From an uncultured Methylomirabilota bacterium (lineage in GTDB: Bacteria; Methylomirabilota; Methylomirabilia; Methylomirabilales; 2-02-FULL-66-22): a DNA stretch of 64,000 nt. The stretch is from assembly GCA_963845565.1 (NCBI GenBank), contig CAWJSJ010000002.1:1696001-1760000 (forward strand). Direction: 5' to 3'. The notes beneath the pieces are model-generated. The model saw only the letters and a list, made by a program, of their open reading frames with translations, searched no databases and was not told the origin of the DNA. Below, in pieces: positions 2 through 52,434 of this stretch (position 1 is the stretch's first letter; each line of letters begins with the position of its first letter). The translations under genes were made by a program, and so were the position numbers.

Positions 2-1273
2 GCTGAGGTCGAGGCAGCCGCCCTCGCGCAGCGCGAGGTGCTCCCCTCCGGGATGGTCCTCCTGGTCGCCGAGCGGCCGGCCGTGCCGATCGTGGCGGCC
101 ACGCTGACGCTCCAGGCGGGTGCCGTCTTCGATCCGCCGACCAAGCCGGGGGTGGCAAACCTGACCGCGATCATGCTCAGCCAGGGGACCACGACCCGCA
201 CCGCGCCACAGATCAGCGAGGCGATCGAGTTCGTCGGAGGCTCCTTGGGCGTGGAGTCCGGCACGGATACGGCGCGACTCTCCTTCTTGTTTCTGAGCAA
301 AGATCTGGACCTGGCGTTGGATCTGATGGGCGATCTTCTGACCAATCCCACCTTCCCGCCGGCCGAGCTGGCAAAGAAGATTCCGGAGGTCCTGGCGGGC
401 ATCAAGCGGAATCAGGAGGATCCCGGGACGGTGTCCTATGAAGCGTTCATGGCCCTGGTCTATGGCTCCCACCCGTACGGGCGACCGACCGAGGGCACCG
501 AGGCCAGCGTGCCGACCATCACGCGGGACGACATCCTCGCGTTCTATAAGGAATACTACCGACCCAACCGGGCCGTCCTGACCGTGGTCGGGGACGTGCC
601 GATGGCCGATCTGAAGTCACGCCTCCAGGCGCGACTGGGCGGCTGGACCCCGGGCGGGCAGCCCCTCGTCAAACCCGCCGCGCCCGCCGCGCTGGCGAAG
701 GGCGTGACGAAGGCCATCCAGCGGGAGGTGACCCAGGCCGCCATCAATTTCGGCCACCTCGGGATCACCCGGGACAACCCCGATTACTACCCCGTCTACG
801 TGATGAACTACCTGCTCGGCGGCGGCATGAACTCCCGCCTTCTCCAGAAGATCCGCGAGGAGAAGGGCTGGGCGTACGACGTCGGAAGCTCCTTCGCGCC
901 GGGCAAGTACGCCGGGGACTTCAGCGTGACGATGCAGACCAAGAACGAGGTCGCCCAAGAGGCCATCGACGCCGCGCTGGCGGAGATCCGGCGCATCCGT
1001 GACCAGTCCGTCTCCGCCCAGGAGTTGGCCGACGCCAAGGCCTACCTCACCGGGAGCTTCCCCCTGCGGCTCGACACCTCGGCCAAGGTGGTCGGCATGC
1101 TGGCGTCCATCGAGCAGAACGGTCTCGGCCTGGATTACGTGGAGCGTTATCCGATCCTCATCAATGCCGTGACGGCCGCGGATGTCCAGCGGGTGGCGCA
1201 GAAATATCTCGATCCCGAAACGTATGCGCTGGCGATTGTCGCGGACCTGACCAAGGCCAAGCTCAAGCCATAG
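2..1273 (+). CDS. M16 (pitrilysin-like) peptidase, non-catalytic subunit, 5' truncated by window
   Basis: Frame open from base 2. M16 fold motifs: GVANLTAIML in place of HxxEH, HPYGR, REEKGWAY R/Y pair. Confidence 0.85.
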   Translation, partial: AEVEAAALAQREVLPSGMVLLVAERPAVPIVAATLTLQAGAVFDPPTKPGVANLTAIMLSQGTTTRTAPQISEAIEFVGGSLGVESGTDTARLSFLFLSKDLDLALDLMGDLLTNPTFPPAELAKKIPEVLAGIKRNQEDPGTVSYEAFMALVYGSHPYGRPTEGTEASVPTITRDDILAFYKEYYRPNRAVLTVVGDVPMADLKSRLQARLGGWTPGGQPLVKPAAPAALAKGVTKAIQREVTQAAINFGHLGITRDNPDYYPVYVMNYLLGGGMNSRLLQKIREEKGWAYDVGSSFAPGKYAGDFSVTMQTKNEVAQEAIDAALAEIRRIRDQSVSAQELADAKAYLTGSFPLRLDTSAKVVGMLASIEQNGLGLDYVERYPILINAVTAADVQRVAQKYLDPETYALAIVADLTKAKLKP

Positions 1274-25026: not shown

Positions 25027-25042
25027 AGCAATGAGTGTGCCA
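25027..25042 (-). promoter_or_regulatory. sigma54 -24/-12 promoter of kor operon
   Basis: TGGCACACTCATTGCT, a consensus match. Confidence 0.8.
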
Positions 25043-25345: not shown

Positions 25346-25377
25346 AAAAGCGGGGACCCGCAACGCGGGCCCCCGCT
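25346..25377 (-). terminator. Intrinsic terminator after rhodanese
   Basis: Minus strand AGCGGGGGCCCGC-GTT-GCGGGTCCCCGCT followed by TTT. Confidence 0.65.
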
Positions 25378-25404
25378 CGAGCGGCAGGCGGCGAGATGTC
25401 GTCG

Positions 25405-25860
25405 CTACTTCTGGACCGGATACCCGGCCTTTTCCCAGCCGGCAACGTAGCCCGCAGCCAGATGCTTCACGTTGGTGTAGCCCTTGAAGCTCAAGGCCTC
25501 GGCAACGTAGCCCGACCGAACGGCCGACGCACAGACGACCACGATCTGCGCGTTCTTGTCCTGGGGGAGCTTGGCCAGGCTCTTGGGCACCTCGCGCACC
25601 GGAACGTTGAGGGCTCCTTCGATCCGGCCCCCCGCGAACTCGTTCGGCTCGCGCACGTCGAGCAGGAAGACCTGCTCGCCGGAGTCCAGCTTGGCCTTCA
25701 GGGCATCGCCCCGGATCCCGTTGAATCCTTGCGGAAGAGTCTCAAGGTACTTGGCGGCCTCCTCCCAGGCGGCGCCGTTTTCGGTGGCGCCGGAGGTGGT
25801 GACCCCCGCGGCCACGACCAGGATCGCGGCCAAAAGGACGAAAGACAGTTTCCGAATCAT
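25405..25860 (-). CDS. Secreted single-domain rhodanese (sulfurtransferase)
   Basis: Signal peptide MIRKLSFVLLAAILVVAAG, LLDVREPNEF, active-site loop CASAVRS, GWEKAGYPV; AAGGAG RBS. Confidence 0.88.
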   Translation of the reverse strand: MIRKLSFVLLAAILVVAAGVTTSGATENGAAWEEAAKYLETLPQGFNGIRGDALKAKLDSGEQVFLLDVREPNEFAGGRIEGALNVPVREVPKSLAKLPQDKNAQIVVVCASAVRSGYVAEALSFKGYTNVKHLAAGYVAGWEKAGYPVQK

Positions 25861-26014: not shown

Positions 26015-27304
26015 CTACCGACGGGGCGGGATGGTCGGAACGGCGACCTTGCTGTTGGCCGCGGCCTCCGTCGGGTTGAGATCGCCCGGCTTCAGGAAGA
26101 TCCGCGCATTCCCATGACAATTGTTGCAACTCGCCGTGCGCGGCGTCTTCCGCTGGATGTTGTGAGGGACGGTGTCCTTCCAGGTCGGGACCGCGTCGTA
26201 GTTCGGCAATGCGTCCTTCACCTTTGCGTCCAGCATCGTCCGGACGGTCGGCGTGTGCCGGAGCAGGGTGTACTGATAGGGGGAGCCAGGGTGAGCGGTC
26301 TTGCCGATCTTGAACTGGAGCGAGGATTTCGCCCCCGTACCCAAGTGGCAATTTTCGCAGCCCCGATACACGGTCGAATGGCATACCACGCAGTTGATCT
26401 TGTCGCCGTGGACCGCGTGCTGCTCGATGGACGATCCGGCCGCCTTGGCGTTGGGGTGGCAACCCAGACAGGACGGCTTGCTCTTGACTGCATGCCGGTT
26501 CGGATAGGCGGTGCCATCCCCGTGGAGCTGGGTGGCCGGATGGCAGGCCACGCAATCCATCTTGGCTTTCTGCCAGTGGATGTCCGGCGGGAAGCCTTCG
26601 TTCTTCCCGGTGTATTCGGGGAATACTCGGCCGCCGTGGCAGGTCCCGCAGGCGTCCTCCATCGGGGGTCGCTTCGCAAAGAGGTGCCCATCCATCAGGC
26701 CGCCGCGCGCCGACTTCGCCTTGCTGACGTGGCAGTCGCCGCAGCTCGCATGGCAACCCTGACAGGCCTGCTTGAACACGGGTTGGACGTCCGGCCAGCG
26801 GTGGGCCGAGACCAGCTTGAGGAAATTCTCGTCACCACGCACGGTGAAGTGCAGGCTGGTCTTGACGTTCGCCACCTCCTTCTCGTGGCAGGCGGCGCAG
26901 GCGGAATCCGGGTCTCGCGAGGGGCGCGCCACCAGGCCCTTGTGCGCGGCCTCCTTGCCCCCGGCCTTGGGATCGCCCTTGTGGCACGTCTCGCAGCCAT
27001 CCATGGCATGCGTGCTGGTCAGGAACGCCGGCTTCACCAGGTAGCGCTGGTACGGTTCCCCCGACGGGGGCGGAGGCCCGCTTCACCCTTCGCCTTCTTC
27101 GGTGGACGGGGGATCGGGCGGGGTGAGCGGTTTCAGTTTGGCCGCGTCGGTGTGGCAGGCGACGCATTGCGAGGGGGCCGAATCGGCCGCGTCGATCGAA
27201 CCGATCCCGCCCAGGACAAGTAGGCCGGCGAAGAGGAGGATGAGAATGATGACGGCACGCTGCCGCCCCAGGGGAGGGCACGCATCGATTCCGTGTGGGT
27301 TCAT
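26015..27304 (-). CDS. Periplasmic multiheme cytochrome c (11 CxxCH), probable selenoprotein (Sec74 at TGA 27083-27085)
   Basis: ORFs 27083-27304 and 26015-27037 are in the same frame, joined by EEGEG-TGA-SGPPPPSGEPYQRYLV. Signal peptide is only in the upstream part. Hairpin lies 12 nt after the TGA. Confidence 0.8.
27058..27082 (-). promoter_or_regulatory. Candidate bacterial SECIS for cytochrome Sec codon
   Basis: UGA-AGCGGGCCUCCG-CCCCC-GUC-GGGGG; loop starts with GU, 17 nt after UGA. Confidence 0.6.
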
Positions 27305-27391
27305 GAAGATGACTCCACGTTTGAGGACGCCTCGGACCCGGCCGCGAGACCCCGCCGAGGGTGCAGTCTCATTTGAACTGTTGTGGAATAC

Positions 27392-27407
27392 AGCAAAACA
27401 TGTTCCA
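27392..27407 (-). promoter_or_regulatory. sigma54 -24/-12 promoter of cytochrome-rhodanese operon
   Basis: TGGAACATGTTTTGCT, GG-N10-GC, ~90 nt upstream of ATG 27304. Confidence 0.7.
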
Positions 27408-27495
27408 TCACCGTTCGAATGCGCACGCGTTTCCGTAACCTCTTGTCAATGCAAGGTTAATCGTTACTCAGCGGCCGATGCCAGGCAAACCATCG

Positions 27496-27602
27496 GTGTT
27501 GCATGCAACACGAATACGGACACAAATTATCGACAGATAGTCTGAAGCACTCTCAAAATCAGTTAAATAGATCCACTCGATAAGGTGCAACAGGCGTTGC
27601 AC
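27496..27602. promoter_or_regulatory. Candidate enhancer (UAS) palindromes
   Basis: Perfect GTGTTGCATGCAACAC (27496-27511) and GTGCAAC-AGGC-GTTGCAC (27585-27602). Confidence 0.55.
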
Positions 27603-27672
27603 GGGAACATTGATCAGACCGGAGAGCAGATGGTGAGAGACGGGGATGACGCTCTGGCGTGATCCATCGCGA

Positions 27673-27699
27673 GGGGCCGACCGACCCCGGACGTCAGTG
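27673..27699 (-). promoter_or_regulatory. Candidate bacterial SECIS for small zinc-ribbon protein
   Basis: UGA-CACUGACGUCC (11 nt)-GGGGUC-GGUC-GGCCCC. Confidence 0.6.
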
Positions 27700-27897
27700 T
27701 CACCCGCAGTCCGACCACGAAGGATCCCAAGGGATGATCTCGTCGGGGGGGTGGGTCGCTTGCCCTTCTCCTCGAGGGTCCGGGTAGATCAGCGTCAGGC
27801 CGCAGAGCGGGCACCGGACGTCGAGTTGGTTCGGGTTCTCGGCCGATATCAGGAATGCGCGCTGGCAGGCGCGACACGTCACGGTGGTTTGCAGCAT
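27694..27897 (-). CDS. Small zinc-ribbon protein, probable C-terminal C-G-U-H selenoprotein (65 aa if TGA 27700-27702 is stop, 67 aa if Sec)
   Basis: GGGAG RBS; CRAC...CPLC; ends WSDCG-TGA-CAC-TGA; starts 21 nt after the activator stop. Confidence 0.65.
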
Positions 27898-27918: not shown

Positions 27919-29661
27919 TCAGGAGCCGACTGGACCGGATGGGACCGCGATGCCCCAGCGCCGCATCTTTCGCCAGAGCGTCGTGCGATCCATTCCGAGC
28001 CGAGCCGCCGCGAGGCCGCGATTCCACCGGGTGGACTCCAGCGCGCGGAGCAGATGCGCCTTTTCATCCGCCGCGGGGACCGGAGTCCTGGATGGGTCCG
28101 GGCGCTGTGGGTCGCTCTTTGGGCTCGCCAGGATCGAGCGAGGCAGGGTGTCCGGCTCGATCATGCCACCCCGGGAGCAAACCATAGCATGCTCCAGGGC
28201 GTTCTCCAATTCACGGATGTTTCCCGGCCAGTCATGGTCTAGGAGAACGGACATGGTGTGCGGCGAGACGGCCAGGGCCCTCCCCTTGGCTTTGGCGGCG
28301 AAGCGATCCAGCAGGGATTCGACCAGCGCCGGGATGTCGGCCTTGCGTTCCCGTAAAGCGGGGATGTGGATCGGGATCACGTTGAGACGATAGTACAGGT
28401 CCTCGCGAAACCTCCGTTCGCGCATCAGTTGGGGCAGGTCGCGATGCGTGGCGGCAATCACCCGGACGTCCACCTGGATGGTCTCGTTGCCTCCGAGCCG
28501 TTCGAATTGCTGCTCCTGGAGCACGCGCAGCAGCTTGACCTGGACGGTCGGGCTCAGATCACCGATCTCGTCGAGAAAGATGGTGCCTTTGTCCGCCAAC
28601 TCGAAACGCCCCTTCCGCTCCTTGATGGCGCCCGTGAAGGCGCCCTTTTCATGGCCGAACAGCTCGCTTTCCAGGAGCGTTTCGGGAAGCGCGGCGCAGC
28701 TCACTTTGACGAACGGGTGGCGCTCCCGTGGGCTGAGGTAGTGCAGGGCGTGGGCGAAGAGGTCCTTGCCTGTTCCGCTCTCTCCCTGGAGCAGGACCGT
28801 GGAGTCGCTGTCCTTGATCATCTCCACCAGATCGAAGATCTCGCGCATTCGGGGGTGCGCCCCGATGATTTGCAGGAAGGGGGTTCGCCGTCGGCGCTCG
28901 TCCACGATCTGCTCGATCTCCCGAAGATCGCGGAAGGTGCAGACGGCGCCGAGCGTAGACCCAGCCTCGTCGCGGAACGGGCCGGTGCAGACGCTGAGCG
29001 GGATCGTCCTTCCGCTCGGTCCAACGATGGCGAGCTCCCGATTGCGGACGACCCGGCCTGTCCGCAGCGTCTCCTGGAGGGGCGAGGCCGCGCCGCAGAT
29101 CTCGGCCGGGAGGAGGTCTGCGCAGGGCTTGCCCAGGACCGTGCCGGCCCGGCGATCCAGGACGCGCTCGGCGGTGCGATTCAAGCTGGTGATCCCACCG
29201 TCTCGATCCACGGTGAAGACGCCCTCGGCGATGGAGTCGAGGACCGCTTGCACCTTGTTGCGCTGCTCGCGCAGCTCGTCGATCAGGCGATTGATGTGCG
29301 TGACCACGCGGATGGTCTCCACCACGCCGACCACATCCCCCTTGGCGTTCTTGAGGGGGGAGGTGTTGATGCAGATGGGGGTGTCCGTTCCGGAGGCGTC
29401 CTTGGCCAGGACGTTGAACGTGGTCACGGTCTCGCCGCCCCGGAATGAGCGCTCGAAGGGGCAGCGCGCCGTGGCGCAGATTTCGCTCTGGAGGATCTGG
29501 CCGCACGACCGGCCGACGGCTGAGGTCTCGGGATGCCCCGTGAGGGTCTCGGCCGGTGCGTTCAGGGTGATGAGTCGCTGCTCGGCGTCAATGGTCAGGA
29601 CGGAGTCAGGGATGCTCCGCAGGATGTCCAAGACGTTGAGGGGTTCGATCGAAATGGGCAT
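27919..29661 (-). CDS. sigma54-dependent activator (PAS-PAS-AAA+-Fis HTH)
   Basis: Two PAS domains, GESGTGKD, ESELFGHEKGAFTGA, FLDEIGD, WPGNIRELEN and AAARLGMDRTTLWRK motifs. Confidence 0.95.
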   Translation of the reverse strand: MPISIEPLNVLDILRSIPDSVLTIDAEQRLITLNAPAETLTGHPETSAVGRSCGQILQSEICATARCPFERSFRGGETVTTFNVLAKDASGTDTPICINTSPLKNAKGDVVGVVETIRVVTHINRLIDELREQRNKVQAVLDSIAEGVFTVDRDGGITSLNRTAERVLDRRAGTVLGKPCADLLPAEICGAASPLQETLRTGRVVRNRELAIVGPSGRTIPLSVCTGPFRDEAGSTLGAVCTFRDLREIEQIVDERRRRTPFLQIIGAHPRMREIFDLVEMIKDSDSTVLLQGESGTGKDLFAHALHYLSPRERHPFVKVSCAALPETLLESELFGHEKGAFTGAIKERKGRFELADKGTIFLDEIGDLSPTVQVKLLRVLQEQQFERLGGNETIQVDVRVIAATHRDLPQLMRERRFREDLYYRLNVIPIHIPALRERKADIPALVESLLDRFAAKAKGRALAVSPHTMSVLLDHDWPGNIRELENALEHAMVCSRGGMIEPDTLPRSILASPKSDPQRPDPSRTPVPAADEKAHLLRALESTRWNRGLAAARLGMDRTTLWRKMRRWGIAVPSGPVGS

Positions 29662-29889
29662 CGCGCACCTCGGGGTTCGCGCCCCGGCTCGGACGATCCA
29701 GGACGGGCCTCGCAGATCGTCGCGGGGCTGATGGGGCGTATCGAAGGGAGTGTAGCATGCTACCGCAAGATGGCAATCGGTCCGGAAGGTGTCGTTCGGG
29801 TCGGCGGACAGGCGGCGGTTCGGAGTCGGTTGCGACATCGGCACCAGGCTCCGGGCGGCTGCCGGGGCCTGGTGCCGCGAATGCGTCGC

Positions 29890-42284: not shown

Positions 42285-42361
42285 CCCCCACGAACCGGAT
42301 CCGAACCGAGGATCGGATTGTGCAACGACGAGACGCAACACCAGTAGAAAGGAGTCGGTCC

Positions 42362-43639
42362 ATGTCACGTGTCACGCGGATCCTGACCGTTCTTGCCCTG
42401 GCCGTGGCGGTGGTCGTCGCGTTTACACCGGCGAGCCAGGCCGGCCAGAAGGCCGAGGTGCGATGGTTCCAGTGGAAGACCACGGAGGTGGGCGAGAAGC
42501 TCATGAACGAGCTGAAAGCCGCCTTCGAGAAGGAGCACCCGGACATCACGCTCACCCTGGTGGACAACCCGTTCCAGGGGTTCCACGACAAGGCGCTCAC
42601 GCTGTTCCAGGCGCAGAAGCTGGCGGATGTCCTGATGGTCCAGGTGGACTGGGTGGCGGAGTTCGCGGATCTGGGGATGCTGGAGCCTCTGGACGCCTGG
42701 CTCGCCAAGGAGCCCAAGGAGTTCATGGACAACATCCCGGAGGCCTTCCAGCAGAAGTGGAGGGGGAAGCAGTACTACCTGCCGCTCCACTCGGGCTGCG
42801 TGGCGCTCTACTGGAACACCGAGATCTTCAAGAACGCCGGGATCGCCGGACCGCCCAAGACCTGGGACGAGTACGTCGCAGATTGCCAAGAAGGTGACGA
42901 ACCCGGAGAAGAAGATCTTCGCGACCACGGCCACGCTGCAGATCGAGCCGCCCACCAACATGACCTATGACATCTACCCGCTGATCCTGCAGGCGGGCGG
43001 CGACATCCTCGACAGCGAAGGCCAACAAGGCCGCCTTCAACAGCCCGGCGGGCGTGAAGGCCATCGAGTGGTACGTGGACCTGGTCAACAAGCACAAGGT
43101 GGCGGTGCCCGGCGTGCTGTCGAACGGCGAGAAGGAGAAGCGGGCCAACTTCGCGCACGGGCAACATCGCCATGATGTTCGAGGGACCCTGGGGTGTCGC
43201 CATCCAGAAGAATTTGAACCAGAACCTGAAGTACGACACCGCGCCCCTGCCCAAGGGGATGACCAGCGGGACGGTGGTCCGCGGCGTCGCTCAATACGGT
43301 GACCACCCAGGCCCAGAACAAGGAGGCGGCTTGGAAGTTCGTGCGCTGGATCTCGGGCCCGGTGGGCAACGAGATGTGGGCCAAGGGGACGCGGCGATTT
43401 CCCGGCTCGGAAGGACGTGGCGGAGAAGCCGTTCTTCAAGGAGAACAAGCTCGCTCCAGGCCTTCGTGCAGCAGATGCAGCAGCCGAACGCCAAGTCGCC
43501 GTTCCTCGGGATGCCGAACGCGGTGCAGATGAACAAGATCATGACCACCGAGGTGCAGAACGTGGTCCAGGGCAAGAAGAACGCCAAGCAGGCGCTGGAC
43601 GACGCGGCGGCGGAGTGGAACAAGATCCTGGCCAAGTAG
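42362..43639 (+). pseudogene. Carbohydrate (CUT1) ABC substrate-binding protein with multiple frameshifts (likely sequencing indels)
   Basis: Signal peptide, FEKEHPDI, LYWN, PPKTWDE, MMFEGPW, KEAAWKFV and KQALDDAA spread across frames; shifts near 42880, 43015, 43155, 43290, 43400 and 43455. Confidence 0.8.
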
Positions 43640-51311: not shown

Positions 51312-52434
51312 CTAGCGGGCCAGCAGGGCCAGGATCGCGCCGCCGGCCATCACCGAGCCGATCTGGCCGGCCGTGTTCGATCCCATGGCGTGCATGAGGA
51401 GGAAGTTGTTCGGGTTGGCCTCCAGGCCGACCCGGTTGACGACCCGGGCCGACATGGGGAAGGCGGAGATGCCCGAGGCGCCGATCAGCGGGTTCACCTT
51501 GCCGCGGGAGACGAGGCAGAGCAGCTTGCCGAAGCCGAGTCCCGCCACGGTGTCCAGGGCGAACGCGACCAGACCCATGCCGAGGATGAACAGCGTCTGG
51601 GCCGTGAGGAACTTGTCGGCGGACATGGTGGAGCCGATGGTCAGGCCCAGGAAGATGGTGACCACGTTGATCAGCTCGTTCTGGGCGGCATTGGACAGGC
51701 GCTCCACGACCCCGGCCTCACGCAGCAGATTGCCGAACATCAGCATGCCGATCAGGGGGGTCGACATCGGGGCGATCAGGCCGCAGACCAGGGTGGTCAC
51801 GATGGGAAAGAGGACCCGAGTGGCCTTCGAGACCGGCCTCGTCGGTGTAGGGCATCACGATGGCCCGCTCTGCCGGCGTGGTGAGCGCCCGCATGATGGG
51901 CGGCTGGATGATCGGGACCAGGGACATGTACGAATACGCCGCCACGGCGATGGGTGCCAGCAGGTCGGGCGCCAGGATGGAGGCCACGTAGATGGAGGTC
52001 GGTCCGTCGGCGGAGCCGATGATGCCGATGGAGGCCGCCTGGTTGATGTCGAACCCGAGGAGGGTCGCCATGAGCAGGGTGCCGAAGATCCCGAACTGGG
52101 CCGCGGCGCCGAGGATCACCGTATAGGGCCGCTCCAGCAGGGGGCCGAAATCGGTCATGGCCCCGACACCGATGAAGATCAGCAGCGGGAACAGCTCGTT
52201 CTTGATGCCCATGGCGTAGAGGACGCCGAAGAGACCCTCGACCTCCGTCATCCCGGTGACGGGGATGTTGGTCAGGATGCAGCCGATTCCGATCGGGAGC
52301 AGCAGGACCGGCTCGTATTCCTTGACGATGGCCAGGTAGATCAGGATCCCGCCGACCAGGATCATGACCAGGTGGCCCCATCCGAAATTTGCGAAACCCT
52401 CAACCAGCTTGGCGGTGACCTTCGGATCAATCAT
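51312..52434 (-). CDS. oadB: Na+-translocating decarboxylase beta subunit (one frameshift near 51840)
   Basis: [56 protein letters not shown] and HAMGSNTAG motifs. Confidence 0.9.

Follow-up and report, generated by a model that had tools for sequence, protein, structure and literature searches.

The closest functional precedent for the gene described here is MccSep, or ExtKL (GSU2937-2936 of Geobacter sulfurreducens; profile NF040886), which the available text of PMC13510729 presents as a Sec/heme polysulfide reductase. According to that text, MccSep is a periplasmic multiheme cytochrome c with one UGA-encoded selenocysteine (Sec), annotated as two genes; it exists in Sec and Cys forms, has a short SECIS right after the UGA and a Gly before the Sec, and likely carries out sulfur chemistry. 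It has five hemes, its Sec lies in a C-terminal Ig-like domain, and a separate Cys ligates a heme. MccSep (2026) was the only multiheme selenoenzyme with a measured activity that our literature search found. The table of a 2026 catalogue of 119 selenoprotein families (PMC13188914) contains three cytochrome-type entries (ExtKL, GSU2204, and OTR) and lists a GenBank-annotated Sec form of TIGR04315.

OTR of Shewanella (SO4144; PDB 1SP3) carries eight hemes, and the ligand of its heme II is Lys56 according to the accessible text of PMC3769277. The two-heme enzymes TsdA and SoxA, which have a His/Cys heme, offer by analogy a possible chalcogen-ligated heme and covalent sulfur intermediates (PMC13510729 and PMC4423706, in their available parts). 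In the Psr systems, as described in the available part of PMC12142623, secreted single- or multidomain rhodaneses, often lipoproteins, stand beside a terminal redox protein; 4Fe-4S/NrfD-type modules are present, and the cofactor is molybdenum.

In the window, by which we mean the whole 64-kb stretch of DNA analysed, two apparently broken genes very probably constitute one exported 11-heme protein with an internal UGA read as Sec, as judged by sequence comparison. The protein shares the features of MccSep listed above, from the periplasmic multiheme c architecture to the likely sulfur chemistry, but it has 11 hemes instead of five, its Sec would lie near the N-terminus, in the loop that connects heme 1 to heme 2, and it is without a separate heme-ligating Cys.

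Reading frame and export signal of the 11-heme cytochrome

The gene occupies positions 26015..27304 of the minus strand. Read from 27304 to 26015, it consists of 73 codons, a TGA at 27085-27083, 355 further codons, and a terminal TAG, and it would encode an exported multiheme cytochrome c of 429 aa with Sec at residue 74. The TGA (27083..27085, minus strand; codon 74) is the sole internal stop in this frame and stands in the context GAA GGC GAA GGG TGA AGC GGG CCT CCG, which gives the motif E-G-E-G-U-S-G. One CxxCH motif precedes it and ten follow (residues 47, 104, 136, 181, 188, 219, 251, 279, 305, 316, and 393). Our retranslation reproduced the joined 429-codon, 11-CxxCH frame proposed in the initial annotation, as well as the 15 open codons past the TGA, which reach a GTG at 27037. 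Gene callers begin an ORF of 340 aa at this GTG (26015..27037, minus strand), with ten hemes and no signal peptide; by fold and profile matches, its OTR-like fold starts at approximately residue 96. A GGAG is located 8 nt upstream of the leader ATG, whereas no such motif precedes the GTG, in agreement with the earlier remark that this codon has no obvious ribosome-binding site.

The signal peptide spans approximately residues 1-39 (27188..27304, minus strand; cleavage site estimated), as located by a hydrophobicity scan and a modelled helix at residues 13-29. On a crude Kyte-Doolittle scale, the best 12-residue mean was 3.41 in the leader versus 0.61 in the first 60 residues past the TGA; at a threshold of 2.0, 70 of 78 complete genes had a signal-like stretch ahead of heme 1, and none of 76 had one after the TGA. 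The claim that only the upstream part has a signal peptide is supported for this gene and for most of the homologs scanned. Attachment of c-type heme requires export, so that the ten-heme part cannot work alone. The heme-1 motif, CVACH, lies upstream of the TGA (27152..27166, minus strand), and its C47, C50, and H51 are invariant in all 75 Sec-type sequences. The product is probably periplasmic and, in many homologs, lipid-anchored.

A base-call error at the TGA was checked against public data. A contig from a public DNA run, which may come from the source sample, covers 26838-27750 with two differences, both outside the gene, and has the TGA codon unchanged. Contigs from RNA, which may include DNA, cover the downstream rhodanese gene and parts of the ten-heme region and do not cover the TGA. 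Of 68 ORFs called crudely in the window, 33 end in TGA, which makes it the most frequent stop there.

Conservation of the UGA among relatives

A scan of genome contigs recovered eight loci from Methylomirabilota and Rokubacteria (71-84% identity), and each of them has TGA at this position. The gene was present in 13 of 251 genomes of the phylum (these carriers overlap with the eight loci), each with exactly one internal TGA, in frame and at the same site, down to 44% identity; the 251 genomes, here and in the selA tally given below, include G033 and G075, which are unpublished and do not carry the gene. From a metagenome scan with alignment, the best 80 of 589 relatives were kept, 78 of which span the junction. 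TGA stands at the junction in 76 of these 78, down to approximately 35% identity; the two exceptions have a Trp and a shortened loop, respectively, and TAA, TAG, or a frameshift was found at none of the 78 junctions. The family motif around the Sec in these metagenome and genome loci is G-x-G-U-(G/A/S)-G. The outcomes that the initial annotation had named as fatal to its proposal, namely other stop codons, out-of-frame genes, or a separate signal peptide on the ten-heme part, were thus absent from the 78 junctions and the 76 sequences scanned for signals.

The terminal stops of the 80 metagenome homologs were TAG in 33, TAA in 26, and TGA in 21. Since TGA ends 21 of the 80 genes in the normal way, general recoding is excluded; recoding of TGA to Trp or Gly was rejected as a candidate, TGA being a normal gene end both in the homologs and in the window.

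Individual loci deviated in other respects. In genome G016 (L016/L028, on G016:C31; 96% identical) the TGA is kept and the leader is frameshifted, and in L098 the gene is interrupted past heme 9; an assembly error may account for each. L048 has a Cys immediately before the TGA (CU), which matches the Cys-Cys of several Cys-type homologs.

SECIS element and Sec machinery

The initial annotation also relied on a hairpin, CCCCC-GUC-GGGGG, as a match to the bacterial SECIS pattern. The hairpin is present (27070-27058), follows the TGA after a 12-nt spacer, and has a G-first loop, but as evidence from a single sequence it was overrated: its stability was no better than that of shuffled sequences (z from -0.59 to +1.32 in four folds). 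Because TGA is in addition the commonest stop, one sequence proves little, and the case rests on comparison. We compared 85 distinct sequences, which are related to one another, so the following figures are not probabilities. Shuffling of synonymous codons gave a modest shift, with a mean z of -0.74 (n=85; kin not independent) versus -0.21 in 255 control windows.

Covariation defined a SECIS core (27058..27070, minus strand) with a 5-bp stem (+13..17 with +21..25) and a 3-nt loop that begins with G at +18. This G was found in 84 of the 85 sequences, together with all five pairs in 69, and stem cells were paired in 89% in register versus 43-55% when slid. The pairs change in a compensatory manner (pair 15-23: UA 44, CG 30, GC 9; pair 13-25: CG 43, GC 36). 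Codon choice in the region is equally constrained: Pro at +6 is CCG in 76 of 76 (background elsewhere in these genes, 42%), Leu at +7 is TTG in 45 of 48 (background 13%), and Glu is GAG in 44 of 45 (background 56%). Two loci without TGA had three of the five stem pairs in register, the register being uncertain in the one with the codon deleted.

Throughout the genome, the same register (G+18 plus five pairs) occurred at 327 of 125603 TGA triplets, and the genome's selD shares it with the 11-heme gene. Two other in-frame TGA candidates with this register encode a Grx-like protein with TPTUPHC (G000:C2:743181, plus strand) and a Prx-like protein with SSGUPHC (G000:C4:236797, plus strand); they resemble catalogued UxxC families, named here by a review-table description.

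The genome has selA and selD over cut-off and tRNA-Sec. selB is present in pieces, frameshifted near the 5' end of the gene and adjoining a G run (G000:C4:5502-7391); since selB scored over cut-off in four of five same-genus carriers, with full length in two, the frameshift is probably an assembly error. selA was found in 11 of the 13 carriers, the two without it being 70-76% complete, and in 215 of the 251 genomes of the phylum, so that its co-occurrence with the gene does not discriminate.

We consider it almost certain that the UGA of the 11-heme cytochrome gene encodes Sec. The proposed readthrough gains support from the conservation of the TGA, the Cys-type and single-chain homologs, SECIS covariation, the Sec machinery, and the signal peptide on the upstream part only. 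That the UGA instead ends translation, the locus being two genes or a pseudogene, or that it reflects an assembly error or recoding to Trp or Gly, is highly improbable: the prevalence of TGA stops in the window, the indel-type breaks of the assembly (as in selB), the starts that gene callers find past the TGA in most homologs, and the ordinary hairpin energy would fit it, but the TGA stays in frame at 35-96% identity with no TAA or TAG, no signal-like stretch follows it in 76 of 76, single-chain homologs exist, TGA is a normal terminator of these genes, the two TGA-less loci retain just three of five stem pairs, and the public contig confirms the codon.

Homologs without UGA and annotation of the family

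We sorted 268 database proteins by a pattern test on the site, heme 1, and length: 137 begin past the site, 10 are full-length with Cys, 26 are full-length without Cys, 6 are without heme 1, 35 are short, and 54 are without the anchor. The full-length proteins of this test, 14 hand-picked full-length rows of a profile search, and locus L088 made up a set of 51 non-UGA homologs. The initial annotation had suggested that homologs be checked for TGA or Cys at residue 74; besides TGA in the 13 genomes and 76 loci above, we found Cys in the loop of 17 of these 51, including 12 with Cys in the aligned column and several with Cys-Cys. In the other 34, the position is taken by Trp, Leu, Tyr, Met, His, or another residue or is deleted; these homologs, devoid of both Sec and Cys, keep their hemes, which indicates that the scaffold can serve without Sec or Cys chemistry and counts against the sulfur mechanism proposed below. 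In a midpoint-rooted tree without support values, the non-UGA homologs are scattered among the Sec forms, which suggests repeated loss of Sec. In one homolog, P0080, the heme 4 motif is CxxCY.

Only six of the best 120 protein database matches extend to the part before query residue 79; the other 114 align from residue 79 or beyond, so the databases split the family. In most homologs, gene callers found a start codon 4-16 codons past the TGA. A profile search yielded 218 clusters (50% identity) at E<=1e-30. Source names and Atlas clusters, which give taxa for few records, point to Anaerolineae, Dehalococcoidales, Desulfobacterales, Nitrospinota, Spirochaetota, and Fidelibacterota.

Relation to known families

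None of the NCBIfam models reached its cut-off on the 11-heme protein. The MccSep profile NF040886 gave no match on it at E<=0.01, and the only genome-wide match was a 20.9-bit fragment on another contig; NF041027, for the GSU2204-family CXXCH selenoprotein, likewise gave no match at E<=0.01. MccSep was not among the matches of either wide fold search, an absence that is not evidence, since the library may not hold it. The 11-heme protein may work like MccSep in principle, but by profile, heme count, and Sec location it does not belong to that family. Nothing like it appears in the table of the 2026 catalogue (PMC13188914), and our search found no published description; supplementary selenoprotein lists could hold members and would then weaken the novelty of the family.

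Two AlphaFold models (pLDDT 76.5 and 80.9), built without hemes, had high confidence in the heme-1 helix and over most of the core. OTR was the only match with Z>=8 in the wide structural search with either model (Z 10.1, rmsd 4.1, 254 aligned; Z 9.1, rmsd 4.3, 261 aligned; next row Z 5.0 and 4.3, respectively), and Foldseek against the PDB gave no match at E<=0.001. Z scores in this middling range are common, yet sequence profiles agree with the fold match: HHalign to OTR gave 97.7% and E 1.5e-12 over 193 columns. In the profile alignment, hemes 3-9 map onto OTR hemes I-VII and heme 11 probably, though weakly, onto VIII, which leaves hemes 1, 2, and 10 and the Sec loop as extra to the eight-heme OTR. 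The OTR segment with the Lys ligand of heme II lies opposite a gap in this alignment, and residues 152-181 of the 11-heme family contain no conserved Lys. TIGR04315 had no match at E<=0.01 on the 11-heme protein or at 1e-5 on four of four distant homologs; as a positive control, the genome's own OTR scored 608.7 on this profile (cut-off 375). TsdA and SoxA, which have two hemes versus 11 here, had no match in sequence or fold searches of the 11-heme protein.

Rhodanese linkage and gene neighbourhood

Downstream of the cytochrome gene, 25405..25860 on the minus strand encodes a secreted single-domain rhodanese of 151 aa (Pfam PF00581, E 8.8e-19) with the intact active-site loop CASAVR and Cys110 (codon 25533-25531), which is likely the co-transcribed partner. 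An intrinsic-terminator-like hairpin of 14 pairs (25348..25378, minus strand) marks the end of the two-gene unit by consensus match; three such matches were found versus 2.6 in shuffles. A sigma-54-type -24/-12 site, TGGAAC-N5-TTGC, lies at 27393..27407 on the minus strand (two matches in the window versus 0.65 expected, weak alone), and 11 of 77 loci, close relatives without exception, have a matching site at a distance of 168-241 nt ahead of heme 1. A scan for sigma-70 promoters found no site on the right strand. Directly upstream of the gene, 27919..29844 (minus strand) encodes, by domain profile matches, a PAS-PAS sigma-54 enhancer-binding activator, whose true start, judging from relatives, is probably the ATG at 29661 and which is likely the regulator of the unit. 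The cytochrome and rhodanese genes thus appear to form a sigma-54 operon here.

Among 41 loci with at least 1.5 kb of flank on both sides, a same-strand rhodanese was found within 1.5 kb in 36 and, as two rhodanese domains joined to the cytochrome, in fused form in one (raw counts). Of the remaining four, two carry a rhodanese on the opposite strand at a distance of approximately 2.5 kb, and L088, which has no Sec, is another. The rhodanese profile derives from the neighbouring rhodaneses themselves, and Pfam confirmed the neighbours scanned (74 of 113 candidates). Fusions occur in six proteins, five with a C-terminal rhodanese (L071, L104, P0143, P0167, and P0259) and one with an N-terminal rhodanese (P0147). 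These were found via loci and profiles; when the window protein was the query, fused forms of 752-2145 aa gave nine weak matches (24-28% identity), none a clear family member. In one clade (L074, L078, L079, L090, L092, L094, and L027), the linker from Sec to heme 2 is longer (32-33 residues) and the rhodaneses are tandem two-domain proteins. Sud of Wolinella is a secreted rhodanese-type sulfur transferase linked to Psr. Like the Psr systems in the available part of PMC12142623, the loci described here place a secreted rhodanese beside a redox protein, some with 4Fe-4S/NrfD-type modules nearby; the candidate catalyst here is Sec with c-type hemes instead of molybdenum.

Recurring neighbours in 57 long loci were LysR (14), a sigma-54 activator (11), HybA-like 4Fe-4S (9), CcsB (6), NrfD-like (4), and TusA-like (3) genes; no membrane partner adjoins the 11-heme gene in this genome. 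The LysR regulator, the commonest of these, scores best to a selenium-metabolism LysR family, below cut-off, and bears on the possibility that the cytochrome/rhodanese pair handles Se, Te, or As species (selenite reduction, Se capture, or detoxification) and not respiratory sulfur. MccSep reduces selenite too (PMC13510729, available text), and ExtM and ExtH gave weak matches, far below cut-off. We regard this possibility as very unlikely, given that no Se or As resistance or transport genes recur among the neighbour clusters present in at least three of the 57 loci, and that sigma-54 control of an 11-heme chain points to a respiratory role.

Elsewhere in the window, a second sigma-54-type site (TGGCAC-N5-TTGC; 25028-25042, minus strand) precedes a 2-oxoacid:ferredoxin oxidoreductase-like operon (24946-21831; named from translations). 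Two ORF pairs in the crude ORF list look like single frameshift-split genes, one decarboxylase beta-like (51312-52434, minus strand) and one sugar-binding-like (42320-43639, plus strand).

A possible sulfane-sulfur oxidoreductase

We propose, at a probability of roughly 0.5, that the co-transcribed rhodanese and Sec cytochrome form a sulfane-sulfur oxidoreductase, most likely a reductase. Sequence comparison underlies the single chain, the Sec codon, the SECIS, the export signal, the rhodanese linkage, the OTR-like fold, and the His count; we infer the substrate, the direction, and all four steps of the cycle. The protein would consist of heme 1, an acidic Gly-rich loop with the Sec, and a ten-heme OTR-like domain. 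In a first step, the rhodanese Cys would be converted to a persulfide with sulfane sulfur from polysulfide or thiosulfate; the Sec selenolate on its mobile loop would then attack the persulfide to form an Se-S intermediate. The loop would next dock at the heme without a distal His, near the invariant Arg226, where two electrons from the heme chain would cleave the Se-S bond, releasing HS- and restoring the selenolate. Finally, the chain would be refilled from the quinone pool via a 4Fe-4S/NrfD-type module, for which the HybA-like cluster (9 of 57 long loci) and the NrfD-like cluster (4 of 57) are possible candidates. The protein has 3.8 kDa of polypeptide per heme, and the cytochrome class at such values is described in the available part of PMC7096707 as consisting entirely of electron-transfer proteins, which counts against a catalytic sulfur mechanism.

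A true OTR gene of the same genome (TIGR04315 over cut-off; L111, G000:C2:2524471-2534196) lies near HmcB/HybA-like 4Fe-4S genes, NrfD-like genes, and another PAS sigma-54 activator; this neighbourhood is a possible electron-donor module.

The His count leaves one heme site open. Ten non-motif His are conserved (in 67-75 of 74-75 Sec forms) for 11 hemes, which means that bis-His ligation is missing from one heme or more, and the Sec may ligate the heme without a distal His. Arg226, Glu230, and Arg349 are invariant in Sec forms. Arg226 is present in all 75 Sec homologs, in 13 of the 17 with Cys, and in 13 of the 34 with neither; at >=40% identity the counts are 12 of 16 Cys versus 12 of 24 others, its loss being confounded with divergence. 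The active heme of TsdA and SoxA has a nearby Arg. Seven of 74 Sec forms lack His350, among them those members of the long-linker clade whose sequences were inspected.

The same count raises the alternative that the Sec is the resting distal axial ligand of the His-less heme (a His/Sec heme c), with TsdA/SoxA-like catalysis in which thiosulfate or polysulfide binds the ligating chalcogen, so that thiosulfate and tetrathionate would be interconverted or sulfur would pass to the rhodanese. As regards substrate, this alternative agrees with the proposed oxidoreductase; it differs in that the Sec would be a resting ligand, not a free arm. With at most ten distal His for 11 hemes, residue 74 as the sole free Cys/Sec position in the mature protein, an OTR-like fold, and His/Cys catalysis in TsdA (as cited in the available text of PMC13510729), such a heme is conceivable; the replacements His (P0142) and Met (P0140 and P0229) at the site are heme ligands more than one change away from TGA, but Trp, Leu, Pro, Phe, Arg, and deletions cannot ligate, and the vicinal CC or CU in several homologs fits redox or sulfur handling. 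Model confidence is moreover below 50 around residue 74 in both models, and we regard a resting His/Sec heme as doubtful. The literature search found no natural Sec-ligated heme c; a natural Sec-ligated P450 is described in the available part of PMC11703216. The initial annotation had placed the Sec on a swinging redox or sulfur-carrier arm: the low model confidence and the rhodanese linkage fit a flexible loop, and an arm function is plausible next to the heme-ligand alternative.

The gene context shows a link to sulfur and cannot give the direction of the reaction that we propose. Sulfide or polysulfide might instead be oxidised at the Sec, with sulfane sulfur passed to the rhodanese and electrons to nitrate, O2, or metal reductases. 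Rhodanese linkage and fusions indicate sulfur and not direction, the HybA-like/NrfD-like modules fit either, and no dsrA match was found in the genome, which also has ORFs that we take to be alternative complex III and a heme-copper oxidase. We nevertheless consider oxidation unlikely: MccSep, the closest functional precedent, is a reductase (PMC13510729, available text), and secreted rhodaneses occur in polysulfide reductase operons (PMC12142623, available part).

Implications

The 11-heme cytochrome probably cooperates with the adjoining rhodanese sulfur carrier in extracytoplasmic sulfur turnover. We put forward only tentatively a broader view, in which the Sec serves a c-type heme as axial ligand or binds that heme only at intervals as it swings, the protein represents a large uncatalogued family independent of MccSep, and with the rhodanese it forms a Mo-free two-protein module for sulfur respiration in sediment Chloroflexota, Desulfobacterota, and Methylomirabilota.

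Next to MccSep, the 11-heme protein would be a second and structurally different design of multiheme selenoenzyme, on an OTR-like scaffold. With 218 clusters, the family is common in uncultured sediment and wetland bacteria and is mis-annotated as a signal-less ten-heme fragment in 114 of the best 120 database matches. It also offers a directly testable candidate for a heme c with His/Sec ligation, for which the natural variants with Cys, His, Met, or Trp would serve as controls. If sulfane sulfur is indeed turned over, these genes would reveal a sulfur metabolism in lineages without the usual marker genes and would bear on the periplasmic use of S0 and polysulfide.
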